Counted from the stretch's first letter, positions 4,610 through 58,405 are shown. The stretch: 64,000 bases of DNA from Gammaproteobacteria bacterium (GCA_050298595.1 JBNKUM010000024.1:91483-155482); one strand, 5' to 3'. A program made the numbers and translations. Notes: a model not told the origin generated them from the letters alone.

Positions 4610-6634
4610 TTACAGTAATGGCACCATCAACAGCGCTACGATATTGATGATTTTTATCAATGGGTTGATCGCTGGACCTGCAGTATCCTTATAAGGGTCA
4701 CCTACTGTATCGCCAGTCACTGCTGCCTTATGCGCATCAGAACCCTTGCCGCCATGATTGCCGTCTTCGATATATTTTTTCGCATTATCCCAGGCACCAC
4801 CACCGGTGGTCATAGAGATCGCCACAAACAAACCGGTTACGATAGTACCGATCAAAACGCCACCCAGTGCTTGCGCACCCAGTGTCAGGCCGACCACGAT
4901 TGGCACTGCAACCGGTAATAAGGAAGGAATAATCATTTCCTTAATCGCTGCACGAGTCAGCATATCCACAGCACGAGAATAATCCGGCTTCTGTGTTCTA
5001 TCCATAATGCCTGGCATTTCACGGAACTGGCGACGTACTTCATTCACGATACCACCGGCTGCACGACCTACTGCTTCCATTGCCATTGCACCAAACAGAT
5101 AAGGAATCAAACCACCAATAAACAGGCCAATAATGACCATATGGTTGGATAGATCAAAGGTTTCAGCCTTGCCTGCACTGGTCAACGAGCTGGTGTAATC
5201 GGCAAACAATACCAGAGTAGCCAGACCGGCAGATCCAATCGCATATCCCTTGGTTACCGCCTTGGTAGTATTACCCACTGCATCCAGTGCATCGGTAGTA
5301 TTTCGAATCTCTTCTGGTAGTTCGGCCATTTCAGCGATACCACCTGCGTTATCGGTAATCGGTCCATAAGCGTCCAGTGCTACCACAATACCCGTCATAG
5401 ACAACATGGCAGTTGCTGCAATCGCTATTCCGTACAGTCCAGCCAGATTATGTGCCCCCCAGATTGAAAGACAGACAGCCAGTACAGGCAATGCGGTTGA
5501 ACGCATCGAAATACCCAGGCCGGCGATAACATTGGTACCATCACCGGTAGTAGAAGCTTCAGCGATATGTCTTACCGGAGAGTATTCGGTTGCCGTGTAG
5601 TACTCAGTAATCACAATCATCGCTACGGTCAGCACCAAACCGATTAACGCAGCACCAAATAGAGCACCAGTGCTAAACATCCCGTTATCCGCCATCATAG
5701 AATTAGTTATCACATAGAAACCGATAGCTGAAAGAATGGCTGACACAGCAGTTGCCTTATACAGCGCAGTCATAATCTTGCCGCCTTCCTTATATTTAAC
5801 GAAGAAGGTGCCGATTACCGAACAGATGATCGAGATACCACCCAGTACCAGAGGATAGGTCACGGCCAGCGCCAGAGTTTCTGTACTCGATTTTACAAAC
5901 ACCAGACTGCCCAGCAACATAGTAGCGATAATGGTTACTGCATAGGTTTCAAACAAATCTGCCGCCATACCCGCACAGTCACCCACGTTATCACCCACGT
6001 TATCTGCGATAACTGCCGGATTACGTGGATCGTCCTCGGGAATCCCTGCTTCAACCTTACCAACAATATCAGCGCCCACATCAGCACCCTTGGTGAATAT
6101 ACCACCACCCAGACGGGCAAAGATTGAGATCAACGAACCACCGAAGGCCAATCCAACCATCGGATGTAGAGGATCATCTACACCCATCATCAGTAATATG
6201 CTGTAGTAACCAGCAACGCCTAATAAGCCTAGCCCAACCACTAACATTCCGGTAATTGCGCCGCCTTTAAAAGCGACCTGCAGGGCAGGATTGATTCCAC
6301 CTTTAGCCGCTTCTGCAGTACGTGAATTGGAACGCACAGAAACATGCATGCCTATATAGCCTGCAGCACCTGATAATAATGCACCCAATGCGAAACCAAC
6401 TGCGGTATACCAGTCCAGAGCCAGGCCAAGGCCCAGGAATAATATTGCGCCAACCATAGAGATAGCCGTGTATTGACGCGCCAGATAAGCCACTGCGCCT
6501 TCCTGAATAGCGCCTGCGATTCTTTGCATTTCTTCATTACCCTGAGGCTTTGCTAAAACGCTAAAGATTGAAACTACCCCATACCCGATCCCTACAAAAG
6601 CACAGATCAATGCCATAACTAATGCTGAACTCAT
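4610..6634 (-). CDS. hppA: Membrane-bound H+-translocating pyrophosphatase, K+-independent type
   Basis: [26 protein letters not shown] and [10 protein letters not shown] motifs. GNTTKA (Lys) marks the K+-independent subfamily. Confidence 0.93.
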
Positions 6635-8004: not shown

Positions 8005-8065
8005 TTAAAAATTTTTATATCAACTACAGGCTTTAAAAAAGCTGAATTCATTGCGGAGAAAAATA

Positions 8066-9322
8066 ATGAGTATAAAGAATGCATTCTATGCACAATCAGG
8101 CGGCGTAACCGCCGTTATCAACGCTTCGGGCTGTGGCGTCATCGAAACCTGTCGCAAACACGCCGACAAAATAGGTAATGTGTATGCCGGTCAAAATGGC
8201 ATCATCGGTGCATTAACCGAAAATCTAATCGATACCTCTAAAGAATCTGCTGAAGATATTGCCGCACTGAAAACCACGCCTTCGGGTGGATTTGGCTCCT
8301 GCCGCTTCAAGCTCAAAAGCCTGGAAGAAAACAAGCGCGAATATGAACGCCTGATCGAGGTGTTCAAGGCACACAACATTGGTTATTTCTTCTATAACGG
8401 CGGCGGTGATTCAGCCGATACCTGTTATAAGGTTTCTCAGTTGTCTGAAAAAATGGGATTTCCGGTACAGGCGATACATGTACCTAAAACGGTTGATAAC
8501 GATCTGCCGATCACCGATAACTGCCCTGGCTTTGGATCAGTCGCCAAGTATATTGCGGTTTCTACACTGGAAGCCTCGTTTGATGTGCGTTCCATGGCTG
8601 CAACCTCTACCAAGATTTTTGTTATCGAAGTCATGGGGCGTCACGCAGGCTGGATTGCTGCTGCAGGTGCACTGGTAGAAGACTATGGTATTCCAGTAGT
8701 CACACTATTCCCTGAAATTGAATTCGATAAAGAAAAATTCCTCGCCGTGGTTGATGCCAGGGTTAAAGAGCATGGCTACTGCACTATCGTAGTTTCTGAA
8801 GGCGCGCACTATCCTGATGGCACTTTTCTGGCAGAACAGGGCACCCGCGACTCATTCGGACACGCCCAACTGGGTGGCGCAGCGCCCATCGTAGCGAATA
8901 TGATCAAGGACGCACTGGGCTATAAATTTCACTGGGCGGTTGCTGACTACCTACAACGTGCAGCACGTCACCTGGCCTCGGAATCTGATGTACAACAGGC
9001 TTATGCGCTGGGTGAAGCGGCAGTCGAAAAAGCCCTGGAAGGCAAGAACTCCATCATGCCGACCGTGGTTCGTGAATCATCAAACCCTTACAAATGGAGC
9101 ATTGGCGAAGCCCCATTAAGCGAAGTGGCTAATGTTGAAAAAATGATGCCTATGGATTACATCAGTGAAGATGGCTATGGTATTACTGACAAGTGTAAGG
9201 AATACCTCTACCCCTTAATCAAGGGCGAAGCCTATCCTGAATACGATGACAACGGTATGCCCATATATGTCACTCTGAAGAATGAGCTGACTGAAAAGAA
9301 ACTACCGCTGTTTGAAATTTAA
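8066..9322 (+). CDS. pfp: Pyrophosphate-dependent 6-phosphofructokinase
   Basis: QSGGVTAVIN, NGGGDS (Asp at the PPi-specificity position), PKTVDND and MGRHAGW motifs; near hppA. Confidence 0.88.
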   Translation: MSIKNAFYAQSGGVTAVINASGCGVIETCRKHADKIGNVYAGQNGIIGALTENLIDTSKESAEDIAALKTTPSGGFGSCRFKLKSLEENKREYERLIEVFKAHNIGYFFYNGGGDSADTCYKVSQLSEKMGFPVQAIHVPKTVDNDLPITDNCPGFGSVAKYIAVSTLEASFDVRSMAATSTKIFVIEVMGRHAGWIAAAGALVEDYGIPVVTLFPEIEFDKEKFLAVVDARVKEHGYCTIVVSEGAHYPDGTFLAEQGTRDSFGHAQLGGAAPIVANMIKDALGYKFHWAVADYLQRAARHLASESDVQQAYALGEAAVEKALEGKNSIMPTVVRESSNPYKWSIGEAPLSEVANVEKMMPMDYISEDGYGITDKCKEYLYPLIKGEAYPEYDDNGMPIYVTLKNELTEKKLPLFEI

Positions 9323-9633: not shown

Positions 9634-9670
9634 CCCGCGCTCTATTATCTATGAAGCATTGGCCAGATTT

Positions 9671-10219
9671 ATGAATCTTGATCGCGTTAACTCGGGTGTA
9701 AATTGCCCAAATGATATTAATGTCATTATCGAAATCCCTTCGCATAGTGATCCTGTCAAATATGAAGTCGATAAAGCAACAGGTGCTATGTTCGTCGATC
9801 GCTTCATGGGAACTGCCATGCATTATCCCTGTAACTATGGATATATCCCACACACACTGTCTGACGATGGTGACCCTGCCGACGTTCTGGTGGTCACACC
9901 GGTACCGCTGATCAGTGGTTCAGTGATCCGCGTTCGTCCTGTTGGCATGCTTAAAATGACCGATGAATCGGGTGAAGATGCCAAGATACTGGCCGTGCCT
10001 GTCGATAGCTTATCGCGTATGTATCGAGAGATTGACTCGGTACGTGATATGCCGCGTCCGTTGCTGGATTCTATCTCTCACTTTTTCGAACACTACAAAG
10101 ATCTGGAAGATGGCAAGTGGGTGCATATCGAAGGCTGGTTGGGTACAGAAGAAGCCAAGAAGGAAATCATGGATAGTATTGAACGTTATAACGCAGCGAA
10201 GGAAAAGCCTGCATTTTAA
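9671..10219 (+). CDS. ppa: Soluble inorganic pyrophosphatase, family I
   Basis: [26 protein letters not shown] and FFEHYKDLE motifs. Confidence 0.97.
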
Positions 10220-15877: not shown

Positions 15878-16843
15878 ATGCTTGATACCTGGCCACTACT
15901 TAAAGACTCACAGTTCCCAGACATTCAAAGAAGTAAACTTGAAATCCTTCAGGTCAATCTGGGGTATTTGTGCAATCAAACCTGCCAGCACTGCCATGTC
16001 AATGCAGGGCCTAATCGAACAGAATTAATAAGCCAGAGCAACATTGATGATTTATTGCACATACTCAGCAATCAGGAAGTTCATACCCTGGACCTGACTG
16101 GTGGCGCACCAGAAATGAATCCGCTTTTCAAAGAACTGGTAGTAAAAGCAAAGGCGATGGGGAAAAAAGTCCTTGATCGCTGCAACCTAACTATTTTAAG
16201 CGAACCGGGTTATCGGGATTTAACTGGTTTCCTAGCTAAAAACAAGGTGGAAATTGTTGCCTCCCTGCCCTGTTATCTGGAACAGAATGTTGATGGACAA
16301 AGAGGTAAAGGGGTTTATCAAAAGAGTATAGACGGGCTCAAAATGCTAAATCAGGCAGGTTATGCCCAGGCTGATTCAGACCTGATACTGAATCTGGTGT
16401 ACAACCCTACCGGCCCCTATCTCCCGCCCGCACAGCAGCAACTGGAAAATGATTATAAAAAGTACCTGAGCGATGAATTTGGCATTCAGTTTAACCATTT
16501 ATTTACCATCACCAATATGCCCATCGCACGTTTTGGCAGCGGCCTGATTTCGCAGGGTAAATTTGAGGAATATATGAATCTGCTGAAGGATTCGATGAAC
16601 CTCTCCAATCTGAATGGCGTGATGTGCAGAAATCAGTTAAGTATTGACTGGCAGGGTTTTGTATACGACTGCGACTTTAATCAAATGCTGAACTTGAATT
16701 TGAAAAACCCTGAAACCGGTAACAATCTGCACATTCAGGATTTAGTGCAGATAGGAATCGAGAACCTGCCCATTCTGGTGGCCGACCACTGCTTTGGATG
16801 TGTCGCTGGCGCAGGAAGCAGTTGCGGCGGTGCTCTGGATTAA
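15878..16843 (+). CDS. arsS: ArsS-like radical SAM protein (arsenosugar biosynthesis / Cys-rich C-terminus family)
   Basis: LQVNLGYLCNQTCQHCHV (CxxxCxxC), DLTGGAPE, YDCDFNQML and C-terminal HCFGCVAGAGSSCGG. Confidence 0.85.
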   Translation: MLDTWPLLKDSQFPDIQRSKLEILQVNLGYLCNQTCQHCHVNAGPNRTELISQSNIDDLLHILSNQEVHTLDLTGGAPEMNPLFKELVVKAKAMGKKVLDRCNLTILSEPGYRDLTGFLAKNKVEIVASLPCYLEQNVDGQRGKGVYQKSIDGLKMLNQAGYAQADSDLILNLVYNPTGPYLPPAQQQLENDYKKYLSDEFGIQFNHLFTITNMPIARFGSGLISQGKFEEYMNLLKDSMNLSNLNGVMCRNQLSIDWQGFVYDCDFNQMLNLNLKNPETGNNLHIQDLVQIGIENLPILVADHCFGCVAGAGSSCGGALD

Positions 16844-16861
16844 ATCCACGCCAATCTATTT

Positions 16862-17533
16862 ATGCGTTTCAGCATTATCATCCCGACACTTAACGAATCC
16901 AGCAACCTGTGCTATGCATTAGAGCAATTGCTGGACAGTATCGAATGCCTTTCTGAGGTTGAGATTATGATCAGTGATGGTGGTAGTAGCGATGACACCA
17001 TTCAACTAGCCACGCAATACCCGGTCAAGCTGATCAATGCAGCAAAAGGTCGAGCCCGTCAGATGAACGCCGGAGCGCAACATAGCACTGGCGACTGGCT
17101 GGTTTTTCTGCATGCCGATACACGCTTACCCGATAACTGGATGGCATTGATAGCGCGTACCGAATCAACCTGGGGACGCTTCGATATTCGCTTAAGCGGC
17201 AGCCACTGGATGCTGAGAATCATCGAGAAGGCGATCAATCTGCGTTCGCGTAAAACCTCAATAGCTACCGGTGATCAGGCATTATTTTTCCAGCGTGATT
17301 TTTTTAACCAGCTCGGAGGCTTTCCCGATATCCCACTGATGGAAGATATCGCAATGAGCAGTCAGGCTCGAAAGATAAGTACACCCGCCTGTATCAGGCA
17401 GGTAGCAATTACATCCAGCCGACGCTGGGAGCAAAACGGTATTCTGCGCACCATATTACTGATGTGGATGATACGATTTGCTTACTGGCTAGGCGTCAAA
17501 CCCGACACGCTGCGCCGAATTTATTACCCCTGA
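16862..17533 (+). CDS. GT2 glycosyltransferase, rSAM-associated (TIGR04283-like)
   Basis: SIIIPTLNE, DGGSSD, GRARQMNAGA, FLHAD, GDQ, LMED and TSSRRW motifs. Confidence 0.9.
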   Translation: MRFSIIIPTLNESSNLCYALEQLLDSIECLSEVEIMISDGGSSDDTIQLATQYPVKLINAAKGRARQMNAGAQHSTGDWLVFLHADTRLPDNWMALIARTESTWGRFDIRLSGSHWMLRIIEKAINLRSRKTSIATGDQALFFQRDFFNQLGGFPDIPLMEDIAMSSQARKISTPACIRQVAITSSRRWEQNGILRTILLMWMIRFAYWLGVKPDTLRRIYYP

Positions 17534-17534
17534 T

Positions 17535-18143
17535 ATGCCCACAAAGCCAGACACTGTGATTCAACTATTCGCTAAACAACCTGTTCAGGGAGAGGTTAAG
17601 ACCCGCTTGATTCCGCAAATCGGTGAATACAATGCCACTGCCGTCTACCGATATTGCCTGCAATATAATTTAAGCATGACTCAGCAAACCCCATACGACC
17701 GGCAGATATGGCTTAATCGTATGAATGACGATGAAATATTTGCACAGCAGCCCTGCCATCTTCAACAGGGCAAAGACCTTGGTGAAAAGATGTACAACGC
17801 TCTGAGTTTTGGCCTGGGGATGTATTCTAAAACCATATTGATCGGTTCCGACTGTTTAGAGCTGACGCCAGAGATACTTGCCGAGGTCGATACAAAATTA
17901 TCAGATAACAATCTGGTGATAGTCCCAGCGCTGGATGGCGGGTATGTATTGATCGCTGTAAGTCAACCAATAGCATCCGATATTTTTATAGACATAAGCT
18001 GGAGTACCGATAGCGTATTAAAACAAACATTAACAAAATGCATGCAACACAAAATCAAAACCTTCATACTTGATCCTTTACGGGATATTGATCACGCAGA
18101 GGATTTGAAACGCTATCCCGAACTTGCAATCTATCTTAACTAA
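17535..18143 (+). CDS. GT-A glycosyltransferase DUF2064 (TIGR04282-like)
   Basis: FAK.P..G.VKTRL, QQGKDLGEKM, IGSDC, PALDGGYVLI and DID..EDL motifs. Confidence 0.88.
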   Translation: MPTKPDTVIQLFAKQPVQGEVKTRLIPQIGEYNATAVYRYCLQYNLSMTQQTPYDRQIWLNRMNDDEIFAQQPCHLQQGKDLGEKMYNALSFGLGMYSKTILIGSDCLELTPEILAEVDTKLSDNNLVIVPALDGGYVLIAVSQPIASDIFIDISWSTDSVLKQTLTKCMQHKIKTFILDPLRDIDHAEDLKRYPELAIYLN

Positions 18144-56572: not shown

Positions 56573-56859
56573 GCCTGCTTTTCAATACTCCTGGTTATTC
56601 CACTAATTCTTAAAATCATCTTAAGATTTACTGAAAATTGCCTATCCAGGCCTATTGGCTGATTACTTCTGGGTTCACCGCAAGAATTTGTGGGGGTAGC
56701 CCTACGTCGGGACCGATGCCTCTAAGACGTCAACGGCGAGAAATTATAGTGCGTTAACTCTTCGGTTTTTTCCCAATTTCTTGAAATAAAATGTCAATAA
56801 TCTGTTAGCCTGATATATGATTAATTTTATTTATACCTATATAGATATATTTATTTTAT

Positions 56860-56888
56860 TTGACATCTCTTACTTATCGCAATAGGTT
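56860..56888 (+). promoter_or_regulatory. Candidate sigma70 promoter for the multiheme cytochrome
   Basis: TTGACA-N17-TAGGTT, preceded by a very AT-rich tract (about 56780-56860). Confidence 0.5.
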
Positions 56889-57080
56889 TTCATATGATAT
56901 TTTTATGTTTGGAAAATTATCGAAACTGGTTATTAACTGCTCCTGATACCCCTCAAGTATTGATTTGTTAGGAAACGGAAGCCCACAACTCGGAATAGTG
57001 CTAATGTCTGGACGATCACTCCCTCACGCTCCCCAAAGGAGACAGCCACATTTCAGCCCTAAGGAAGGGGGAGGATCACT

Positions 57081-57740
57081 GTGTTGAAAAATACTCTTTT
57101 ATCCAGATGGATAGATAAGCTGGTTGCGGTACTCTTGCTTGCTTCAGCACTCCCTGCGACTGCGGGTATTCAGGGCAGCCCTCATGACTTTTCTCAGCAT
57201 GGCTGGTCTGGTGGTGAAATCTGCAGGACTTGTCATGTACCTCACAACTCGATCAGCGGAAGCCAGCCCCCCCTGTGGAATCACGAAATTTCGAATGAAA
57301 CTTACAAATTATACAGCAGCCCAACCCTGAACCCGAAGCTTCCCACCGAGCAACCACCACCTGGCGGTCTCTCGCGGATGTGCCTCTCCTGCCACGACGG
57401 TACGATCGCGATAGATTCATTTGGTGGTAATAAGGGCGGTTCAACCATTACCGGTAAGGCTAATCTGGGAACAGATCTCAGCAATGACCACCCCATTGGG
57501 ATTGAATGGGGTCATCAGACAGGACAGGCACTTTGCTTAGGATGCCACAATCTCCAGTACAATCCAGAGACTTATACCAATGAATTTGTTGGTGAGACGG
57601 GACGAGGGCTCAAATTTTTCGACAGAAAAATCGAATGTCCAACATGTCATGACGTCCATAACAATCAGGTGATGGATGTGAAACTGCTAAGAAAGCCTCT
57701 GGCAGGTTCGCAGCTCTGCCTGCAGTGCCATCCCAAATAA
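57081..57740 (+). CDS. Secreted pentaheme c-type cytochrome, OmcE-like
   Basis: GTG start with GGAGG RBS and Sec signal. Five CxxCH (C48, C101, C152, C186, C213). Blocks HD.S, CHxPHN, PLWN, LYSS, CLSCHDG, ITGKANLGTDLSNDHP, ECxxCHxVH and AGSQLCLQCH match my recollection of Geobacter OmcE. Confidence 0.85.
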   Translation: MLKNTLLSRWIDKLVAVLLLASALPATAGIQGSPHDFSQHGWSGGEICRTCHVPHNSISGSQPPLWNHEISNETYKLYSSPTLNPKLPTEQPPPGGLSRMCLSCHDGTIAIDSFGGNKGGSTITGKANLGTDLSNDHPIGIEWGHQTGQALCLGCHNLQYNPETYTNEFVGETGRGLKFFDRKIECPTCHDVHNNQVMDVKLLRKPLAGSQLCLQCHPK

Positions 57741-57982
57741 TCTGCTATTACACGATACGTTTCATCCTGCCAGCTGTTGCCCGAGATAGATAAATATCGA
57801 GACCTTCGAGTATAACTGCATAACTGTGATCACCCATTAGCTGTCTCCAGACAGTGGACTAAACTCCCTCTCGCTATAAAGGGGACAGCAAGATTACCTT
57901 TTTACCGGTTATGGAGCGATCTATAAAATACCCATTCAGTTAAAACAGTGAACTTGGACAGAAGAAGGAGCCCCGCCTCGCA

Positions 57983-58006
57983 GTAGGAGCGCCGGTTACC
58001 CGGCGC
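57983..58006. repeat. GTAG-class REP-like palindrome
   Basis: GTAG-GA-gcgccgg-ttac-ccggcgc, a 7-bp perfect stem overlapping the start of the tandem module. Confidence 0.55.
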
Positions 58007-58231
58007 GTCCTGCTCACGCCCCTTACCTATGTCCTTATAGGCAAGGCTTCCGCGTCCTGCTCACGCCCCTTACCTATGTCCTTATAGGCAACACAGAGAT
58101 ACGCCGCCGCAAACGTGCAATTCAGCTGGTATAGGGATTCACCTCTTTGGTGAAAATACAAACCGACTGTGATCGTTTACGAAACAGAGGATTACTCACT
58201 AATACGAGTGCTCAACTGTGGAATCCAGGTT
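58004..58231. mobile_element. MITE-like repeat, copy 3 (inverted relative to copy 1; two tandem nested modules)
   Basis: 41-bp perfect direct repeats at 58004-58044 and 58051-58091 (period 47); the remainder aligns to the reverse complement of 11708-11850. Confidence 0.88.
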
Positions 58232-58405
58232 CAACAAAATAAGGCGTCAGCACTCATTGAAAGTCAGAGTGTGAAAGCCTCCTACCTGGAAGAAGTCGCT
58301 AAGGATTAATGTGTGTAGATTTATGGTATGCATAGATCTGCCATAGCCACTCACTGTGCTACACTTCGCAGCAATCACACACACCTTTCTTGCTGGAACT
58401 ACACC

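Follow-up and report, generated by a model that had tools for sequence, protein, structure and literature searches.

A gammaproteobacterial member of the five-heme branch of the OmcE cytochrome family

Introduction

Could a gammaproteobacterium that appears to live by sulfur oxidation build a cytochrome wire of the OmcE type, and what might an additional heme contribute to such a wire? The question is raised by a gene at positions 57081..57740 (plus strand) of a 64,000-nucleotide stretch of DNA from Gammaproteobacteria bacterium (GCA_050298595.1, JBNKUM010000024.1:91483-155482), called the window below, from whose first letter all positions are counted. An original prediction, made from the DNA sequence, described the gene product as an exported tetraheme nanowire subunit related to OmcE of Geobacter sulfurreducens. 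Here we report that the protein is a further member of a recently flagged five-heme branch of the OmcE family, a branch that is already in print as computational models.

Solved filaments of the OmcE family number only two, each built from four-heme subunits and each from metal-reducing Desulfuromonadia. The interfacial heme of OmcE has an unsatisfied sixth ligand until a neighboring subunit gives a histidine.(PMC13712944; PMC9473688; PMC12954529) Petersen et al. 2026 described OmcE homologues in five phyla, chiefly Thermodesulfobacteriota and Pseudomonadota, and pointed to OmcE-like proteins with five CxxCH motifs as what might be a new family of OmcE nanowires.(PMC13712944) In the AlphaFold3 models presented there, the extra heme is solvent-accessible and branches off an intact four-heme core chain.(PMC13712944)

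The gene product and its place in the OmcE family

The gene is a single open reading frame (ORF) of 219 codons with a GTG start, which stands 6 nucleotides (nt) behind a Shine-Dalgarno-like GGAGG (57070..57074); the coding sequence given above includes the stop, and all features described in this section and the next two lie on the plus strand. An in-frame stop precedes the GTG by 6 codons only, giving an open frame of 225 amino acids (aa). The GC content of the gene is 0.50 as compared with ~0.46 in its flanks, which is no striking anomaly. The 219-aa translation holds the blocks SPHDFS, EICRTCHVPHN, PLWN, LYSS, CLSCHDG, ITGKANLGTDLSNDHP, IECPTCHDVH and LAGSQLCLQCH, and five CxxCH motifs, starting at residues 48, 101, 152, 186 and 213. 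Its N-terminus carries K3, R9 and K13 followed by LVAVLLLASALPATAG, contains no cysteine and reads as a Sec type-I signal peptide (residues 1-28, 57081..57164) with predicted cleavage after A-T-A.

A phmmer search of the protein against all PDB chains returned the G. sulfurreducens OmcE filament (7TFS, GSU0618) at E 2.1e-26, with query residues 16-219 aligned to chain residues 12-232, and a "putative multiheme cytochrome c" of 218 aa in 16 chains (9YUQ) at E 8.5e-19. From its 16 chains and its length we take 9YUQ to be the OmcE of Desulfuromonas soudanensis WTL. Beyond these two, no PDB chain was found at E<=0.001, and the next rows had E values above 1. The ExtKL/c552 pentaheme family of cable bacteria (PMC11976967) was considered and set aside, 7TFS and 9YUQ being the only solved chains within that threshold.

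All four CxxCH motifs of OmcE and four other histidines align residue for residue with the query, and the eight heme ligands of OmcE are invariant or at least 90% conserved across 150 aligned rows. The aligned motifs are C48-R-T-C-H52 (57222..57236; CVFCH in OmcE), C101-L-S-C-H105 (57381..57395), C186-P-T-C-H190 (57636..57650; the fourth by sequence order) and the C-terminal C213-L-Q-C-H217 (57717..57731), after which only two residues, PK, follow. The other conserved histidines are H55 of PHN (57243..57245), H137 of NDHP (57489..57491) and H193 of DVHN (57657..57659), each at a distal-ligand position, together with H35 (57183..57185). H35 is invariant in 150/150 rows and corresponds to OmcE H31, which comes second within the stretch of the solved chain that is aligned (30-231).

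The predicted fold is consistent with this assignment. An AlphaFold2 (AF2) model computed from the 150-row family alignment, in which hemes are not represented, reached a predicted local distance difference test (pLDDT) score of 88.4 and a predicted template modeling (pTM) score of 0.79, with residues 4-21 of the signal peptide helical. A model built from 49 five-heme rows was poor (pLDDT 54.5) and was set aside in favor of the former. When the 150-row model was searched with Foldseek, 7TFS was the sole match at E<=0.001 among the 32 matches listed (E 5.7e-9, template modeling scores 0.53/0.57). VIA-align superposed model residues 34-218 on chain residues 30-231 of 7TFS with Z 13.3 and a root-mean-square deviation of 3.1 A over 170 of 202 residues at 38% identity; the next entry had Z 2.0. 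The matches in Pfam and NCBIfam were to generic multiheme domains only (Paired_CXXCH_1 and similar), with no OmcE-specific model among them, and those in the ESM Atlas to generic "cytochrome c family" clusters only. Judged by sequence and by predicted fold, membership in the OmcE family is established.

The sequence observations of the original prediction were borne out, and its interpretation is supported in part. The 219-aa multiheme cytochrome is there as an ORF, all the blocks that had been listed occur in its translation, and its export is read from the signal peptide sequence. H35, H55, H137 and H193 are each present. A block described as nearly identical in OmcE (ITGxANLGTDLSNDHP) reads ITGEANLGTDLSNDHP in OmcE and ITGKANLGTDLSNDHP in the window protein in the phmmer alignment, and the likeness to OmcE indeed extends over the full length, in sequence as in predicted fold. 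The heme count has to be revised: all four OmcE motifs align, but a fifth CxxCH, C152-L-G-C-H156, had been overlooked, so the protein is a five-heme variant.

The window protein thus shares with G. sulfurreducens OmcE a similar length, four CxxCH motifs, four distal histidines, the ITG block and the predicted fold, and differs from it in having the fifth CxxCH and a W-x-H-Q motif in a loop that has neither cysteine nor histidine in OmcE. The two proteins also differ in host, a metal reducer in the case of OmcE and a sulfur-oxidizing autotrophic gammaproteobacterium for the window gene, and in genomic setting, since the window gene has no omcE-type neighbors. Moreover, OmcE filaments have been solved, whereas the window protein is known from sequence and model. 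D. soudanensis OmcE resembles it over the full length and has the same conserved ligands; unlike the window protein, it has four hemes and its gene lies inside a minimal omcE cluster. The D. soudanensis filaments are described as anti-parallel bundles, held by bundling loops that are not conserved in the family.(PMC13712944)

A five-heme branch with its own signature

The extra motif (57534..57548) falls where the alignment gives OmcE neither cysteine nor histidine. Database relatives of the query numbered 2524 at E<=1e-3. Among the query and its 120 best relatives, 102/121 have five motifs and 19/121 have four, and the extra motif is always the third. Ten histidines are invariant in 49/49 five-motif relatives, namely the five CxxCH histidines together with H35, H55, H137, H145 and H193, which is exactly enough for five bis-His hemes. 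H145 stands seven residues ahead of the extra CxxCH, within the W-x-H-Q motif (W143-G-H145-Q146, 57507..57518). Position 145 is histidine in 95/95 five-motif rows versus 4/55 four-motif rows, and position 143 is tryptophan in 94/95 versus 6/55. From these row counts, the extra heme probably has H145 as its distal ligand.

Across 1.84 billion cluster representatives, an exhaustive search gave 4330 relatives at E<=1e-3; the best 150 of them comprised 121 four-motif and 18 five-motif proteins. A quick maximum-likelihood tree was then drawn for 153 single-module proteins of 180-290 aa with four or five motifs, the columns of the fifth heme being kept in. All 25 five-motif rows, including the query, fell on one side of 34 rows, with a Shimodaira-Hasegawa-like approximate likelihood ratio (SH-aLRT) value of 89, which is below the star threshold. 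Nine four-motif rows share that side and look like secondary losses. The remaining 119 rows are all four-motif and include the four-heme paralogue from the same genome and a Geobacter sequence. As far as sequences can tell, the extra motif and the invariant W-x-H-Q with H145 mark a coherent five-heme branch.

The window protein fits the five-CxxCH proteins of Petersen et al. 2026, which are OmcE-like in sequence, similar in length, provided with one additional CxxCH and found mostly in uncultured bacteria of several phyla. To the AlphaFold3 models described there, which come with neither a sequence signature nor a phylogeny nor gene context, the present analysis adds the W-x-H-Q/H145 signature, the tree side and the observation that the genes mostly stand alone. 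The branch is large, given the 102 proteins counted among 121 and their spread over several phyla, and the W-x-H-Q motif and third CxxCH, used with the rules for the termini given below, are simple markers for sorting members of the family.

Putative chain-propagating ends

Like OmcE, the window protein has a histidine beside its mature N-terminus and a C-terminus two residues past the last heme motif. Both arrangements are widely kept among relatives. The chain ends exactly two residues past the last CxxCH in 110/116 five-motif and 127/136 four-motif single-module relatives, and the N-terminal histidine precedes the first heme cysteine by 13 residues in 99/116 five-motif proteins.

Tandem fusions of the four-heme module occur in P0122 (four modules, 16 motifs), P0136, P0123, P0130 and P0250. 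At six junctions, 8-9 residues lie between the last CxxCH histidine of one module and the N-terminal histidine of the next; the seventh, in P0122, has a 17-residue linker. Eight to nine residues are the sum of two C-terminal and six to seven mature N-terminal residues, and this matches signal peptide cleavage after A28 in the window protein. As Rosetta-stone evidence, the fusions favor head-to-tail contact of exactly those ends. From the alignment, the chain numbering, the fusions and the published OmcE logic, we infer that H35 would be donated as a ligand and that the C-terminal heme would accept it. By its sequence, then, the window protein keeps both chain-propagating ends, as four-heme members do.

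Taken by themselves, these five fusion proteins consist of two to four tetraheme modules, reach up to 1400 aa with 16-20 CxxCH motifs and in some cases have domains other than cytochromes at the C-terminus. They resemble stretches of an OmcE-type wire joined by covalent linkage.

A complex prediction for two chains (residues 29-219), supplied with 4 of the 10 hemes needed, gave ipSAE values of 0.01 and 0.01 against a mark of 0.42, and speaks neither for nor against binding. A role as an "anchor" or terminator was rejected as the leading interpretation, the protein having no extra capping histidine and no C-terminal extension.

The host genome and its four-heme cluster

The genome comprises 5.49 Mb in 119 contigs and holds two further OmcE modules, both on contig C26. 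One is a 253-aa four-heme protein (7TFS at E 2.4e-24, 9YUQ at E 1.9e-24) and the other forms the N-terminal domain of an 11-heme (undecaheme) protein of 564 aa (7TFS at E 1.2e-22). In a cluster at C26:4205-19735 (locus L009), the genes of these two proteins enclose a gene for a 705-aa protein that has an NHL propeller gene on either side. The 705-aa protein has no Pfam match; from its size, its position and its weak conservation we take it to be a putative beta-barrel. Past the undecaheme gene lie two sets of multiheme and cytochrome-b-like membrane proteins and an S26 signal peptidase.

The minimal omcE cluster of Petersen et al. is described as OmcE and a large beta-barrel together with a pair each of multiheme cytochromes and beta-propeller lipoproteins (PMC13712944), and the C26 cluster is such a cluster. 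The beta-barrel, beta-propeller lipoproteins and multiheme proteins that accompany omcE genes are thus found around the four-heme paralogue and not around the window gene. The C26 cluster also resembles, by a comparison of parts lists only, the uet cluster of 'Candidatus Tenderia electrophaga' and the Tenderiales, in which UetA is a tetraheme cytochrome, UetC a beta-barrel, UetH/I are NHL propellers and UetJ is an undecaheme protein.(bioRxiv 10.1101/2022.05.06.490989) In the preprint, electron uptake is put forward as the role of the uet cluster, and polymerization of its cytochromes is raised as a possibility; the word "OmcE" is absent from the preprint text.(bioRxiv 10.1101/2022.05.06.490989) The C26 cluster has parts of the same kinds and, like uet, belongs to a CO2-fixing gammaproteobacterium, so that electron uptake is a role already suggested in print for clusters of its type. 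The window gene differs in lying outside any such cluster.

In the undecaheme protein of C26, a histidine stands 11 residues past the last CxxCH histidine of the OmcE module. We speculate that this module might cap itself and form the base of a filament.

The genome encodes the large subunit of RuBisCO, DsrAB, CcmE and a pair of GspD secretins, and the adenylate kinase gene of the window has relatives at 83-89% identity in metagenome-assembled genomes (MAGs) named "Gammaproteobacteria bacterium". These genome-wide genes and kinase relatives, rather than the neighbors of the window gene, fit a sulfur-oxidizing autotroph. ORFs with at least four CxxCH motifs number 24 genome-wide, which is unusual for such an organism. 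Very large multiheme ORFs on contigs C91, C5, C74, C62 and C103 span 2101, 1181, 1100 and 527 aa, with 76, 38, 37 and 21 CxxCH motifs, respectively.

These data qualify what the original prediction had said about the organism. The neighboring genes had been read as hinting at a chemolithotroph, a reading that is not supported, as they are housekeeping genes and say little on chemolithotrophy. The idea that the organism may build wires gains better evidence than the window gene from the canonical four-heme omcE/uet-type cluster on another contig, the window gene itself lying outside any omcE-type cluster. A host well outside the Geobacteraceae is indeed found, this being an uncultured gammaproteobacterium, but OmcE homologues outside that family, including those of Pseudomonadota, and uet clusters of electroautotrophic gammaproteobacteria have already been published. 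A search of the genome for cytochrome maturation genes, type II secretion and paralogues had also been suggested, and it yielded CcmE, the two GspD secretins and the OmcE paralogues.

Relatives of the five-heme gene

Candidatus Thiodiazotropha MAGs contain the nearest named proteins, which are 71% and 67% identical to the query (70% and 68% at locus level), and one database protein (P0002) is 99% identical to the query. Among 79 loci kept from species-representative genomes, seven five-motif genes were found, two at L011 and one each at L012, L013, L015, L016 and L017. Two of these, at L015 and L016, lie together with a regulator gene ~3 kb upstream of a four-heme omcE cluster. For the other five genes (L011 twice, L012, L013 and L017), no propeller, barrel or undecaheme gene was present in the available flanks, which at L012 and L013 end at contig ends. 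None of the window neighbors recurs at the loci of the relatives. Co-occurrence of undecaheme and four-heme genes was scored in 6 genomes only, and within these the undecaheme cluster gene was present in 4/4 Thiodiazotropha genomes with five-heme genes.

The arrangement at L015:3033-5191 and L016:9983-12151, in two Candidatus Thiodiazotropha MAGs, is worth a separate description: the five-heme gene is directly followed by a gene for an NtrC-type sigma-54 response regulator, and then comes the four-heme omcE cluster. Our literature search, supplementary tables lying outside it, found no paper joining OmcE or multiheme cytochromes with Thiodiazotropha. The name appears in print together with "extracellular electron transfer" in work on magnetic-field effects on mangrove communities.

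For the window's own order, which is also its family, 79 genomes were searched, and 10 gave any match at E<=1e-15. A genome of the same genus (G078) contains, at L093 1426-1700, a 3' remnant with 84% nucleotide identity over 197 nt. It corresponds to the last ~43 codons and ~70 nt of downstream sequence, lies in intergenic DNA whose flanks are unrelated and represents decay of the gene in a congener.

A possible side-branched wire and its alternatives

On these grounds we propose the following model. The protein would be exported by Sec and matured by Ccm as a c-type cytochrome of the OmcE family. Four hemes at the conserved OmcE positions would form a linear bis-His chain, while the fifth, on C152xxCH156 with H145 as its probable distal ligand, would sit in a loop that has no OmcE counterpart and point off the chain toward solvent, as in the published AlphaFold3 models. 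The short mature N-terminal tail with H35 and the C-terminus two residues past the last motif would serve as propagating ends, H35 of one subunit completing the C-terminal heme of the next, head to tail. Assembly could take place as a homopolymer or mixed with the four-heme C26 paralogue, and the resulting "leaky" wire of hemes would exchange electrons outside the cytoplasmic membrane. We regard head-to-tail assembly as the most likely course because both propagating ends are kept. The data show the family membership, the predicted fold, the conservation of the ligands, the signature of the fifth heme and the setting in the genome; the interface-crossing histidine, polymerization, cellular location and direction of electron flow are what we infer here, and we see about an even chance that the protein is a chain-propagating OmcE-family subunit with a side-branch heme, joined head to tail via H35, alone or with the C26 paralogue.

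Several observations weigh against this proposal. No porin, propeller or cytochrome gene lies beside the window gene, and an omcE-type cluster is nearby at only 2/8 five-heme loci (the window and the seven others examined); without a linked porin or cluster, export across the outer membrane is thus unexplained. In a complete 3.9-Mb Phycisphaerales chromosome, the five-heme gene is the only OmcE-family match and no undecaheme gene was found at E<=1e-20. The tandem fusions seen are all made of four-heme modules, and the search for longer relatives listed no fused relative above 42% identity. Finally, a full-length orthologue was found in 0/78 other genomes of the window's order. Because no such orthologue was found there, and one 3' remnant is all that was seen, the gene is accessory and patchy, and it is dispensable in this order.

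Part of this evidence suits a different role, that of a soluble, non-polymerizing periplasmic pentaheme carrier with the OmcE fold, which would shuttle electrons, in the manner of PpcA or STC, between inner-membrane quinol oxidoreductases and porin-cytochrome conduits. Such a carrier would account for a gene that stands alone with no porin or propeller nearby, for the 6/8 five-heme loci unlinked to an omcE-type cluster and for the complete Phycisphaerales genome that has the gene and no omcE cluster at all. The many multiheme conduits of the host, to judge from 24 ORFs with at least four CxxCH and up to 76, 38 and 37 motifs, would need periplasmic partners, and an extra solvent-exposed heme would suit docking. 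We nevertheless regard a carrier, the main alternative, as a possible but somewhat doubtful explanation: the N-terminal His tail and two-residue C-terminus are as strictly kept as in filament-forming four-heme members, by the published OmcE logic the C-terminal heme of a monomer would lack its sixth ligand (PMC13712944), and the only solved relatives, 7TFS and 9YUQ, are both filaments. The same two ends, and the lack of any capping feature, speak against a minor subunit, placed at the tip of or interspersed in the four-heme OmcE/Uet-type filament of C26, whose exposed fifth heme would contact minerals, electrodes or partner cells. Petersen et al. 2026 ask whether the filament tip could be an OmcE-like protein with more exposed hemes and report none in omcE operons.(PMC13712944) Such a part would agree with the five-heme gene and sigma-54 regulator lying ~3 kb upstream of the four-heme cluster in two Thiodiazotropha genomes (L015, L016), with the presence of the undecaheme gene in each of the four Thiodiazotropha genomes having five-heme genes and with the coexistence of four- and five-heme paralogues in the window's genome. 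It fits poorly with a complete genome that has no four-heme partner, with most omcE clusters seen (e.g., in Phycisphaerae) having no five-heme gene nearby and with genomes that hold two to three five-heme copies (two at L011, plus L013), and we think it improbable.

It is also conceivable, if very unlikely in our judgment, that the gene is a dispensable paralogue, possibly gained by lateral transfer, that does little in this organism at present. Its nearest relatives over the full length (70% and 68%) are in Candidatus Thiodiazotropha, outside the 79 genomes of the order, where no full-length orthologue and one decayed 197-nt 3' remnant (84% identity) in a congener were seen, and the flanking genes are not shared with the Thiodiazotropha loci. 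However, the reading frame is intact, every heme ligand is in place, the ribosome-binding site is good, a 99% identical protein is on record (P0002) and the GC content stands out little from the flanks.

Returning to the head-to-tail wire, a polymer of the five-heme branch would combine the insulated chain of OmcE with an exposed heme like that of OmcZ, which would bear on how wires make contact with surfaces and with other wires. It would also extend cytochrome wires to sulfur-oxidizing chemolithoautotrophs. A broader idea, offered tentatively and with doubts, is that five-heme proteins, alone or copolymerized, constitute a second class of heme wire with one exposed heme per subunit off an insulated chain, which sulfur-oxidizing autotrophs would use for sideways exchange. 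Such wires would be made beside the insulated four-heme wire, including by relatives of clam symbionts, and would pass electrons sideways to or from minerals, electrodes or neighboring cells, either for uptake or for dumping when oxygen or nitrate is out of reach. The present genome is a convenient case for a test of co-assembly because the five-heme gene and a complete four-heme cluster are both present.

Other features of the window

The gene is isolated, with an AT-rich spacer of ~500 nt upstream and ~590 nt downstream. Its neighbors encode TamB, TamA, an S-adenosylmethionine (SAM)-dependent methyltransferase, a short-chain dehydrogenase/reductase (SDR) and a DUF1456 protein, followed by a CvfB-like S1 protein, an EamA protein and an aminotransferase; the rest of the window consists of housekeeping genes. 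A simple scan for promoters and terminators found no plus-strand promoter-like site upstream of the gene, and its counts (4 promoter-like sites versus 3.8 in shuffles, 1 terminator-like site versus 1.8) showed no excess over shuffled sequence. Matches to a sigma-54 consensus, TGGCAC-N5-TTGCW with up to 3 mismatches, numbered 313 against 324 expected by chance and are uninformative. Among the sequencing runs listed for 56600-58300, no RNA data set contained the locus.

Downstream of the gene, on the minus strand at 57982-58090, a 6-kb search gave an Rfam match to PrrB/RsmZ that stays below threshold, at 23.6 bits (gathering score 44, E 0.022), and has no genome-wide significance. The region contains a 47-nt unit twice, each copy with AAGGACA and CAGGACG motifs, and then a GC-rich hairpin; it may encode a sponge RNA of the Csr/Rsm type.

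Elsewhere in the window, three adjacent plus-strand genes at 15878-18143 encode a radical SAM protein ArsS (TIGR04167) and two glycosyltransferases (TIGR04283 and TIGR04282), and by sequence this trio appears to match the arsenosugar biosynthesis set. A membrane ion-translocating pyrophosphatase (4610-6634, minus strand) is encoded near a pyrophosphate (PPi)-dependent phosphofructokinase (8051-9322, plus strand), and a soluble pyrophosphatase at 9659-10219. Chemosynthetic symbionts are also reported to have such a pairing, which saves energy through the use of PPi.

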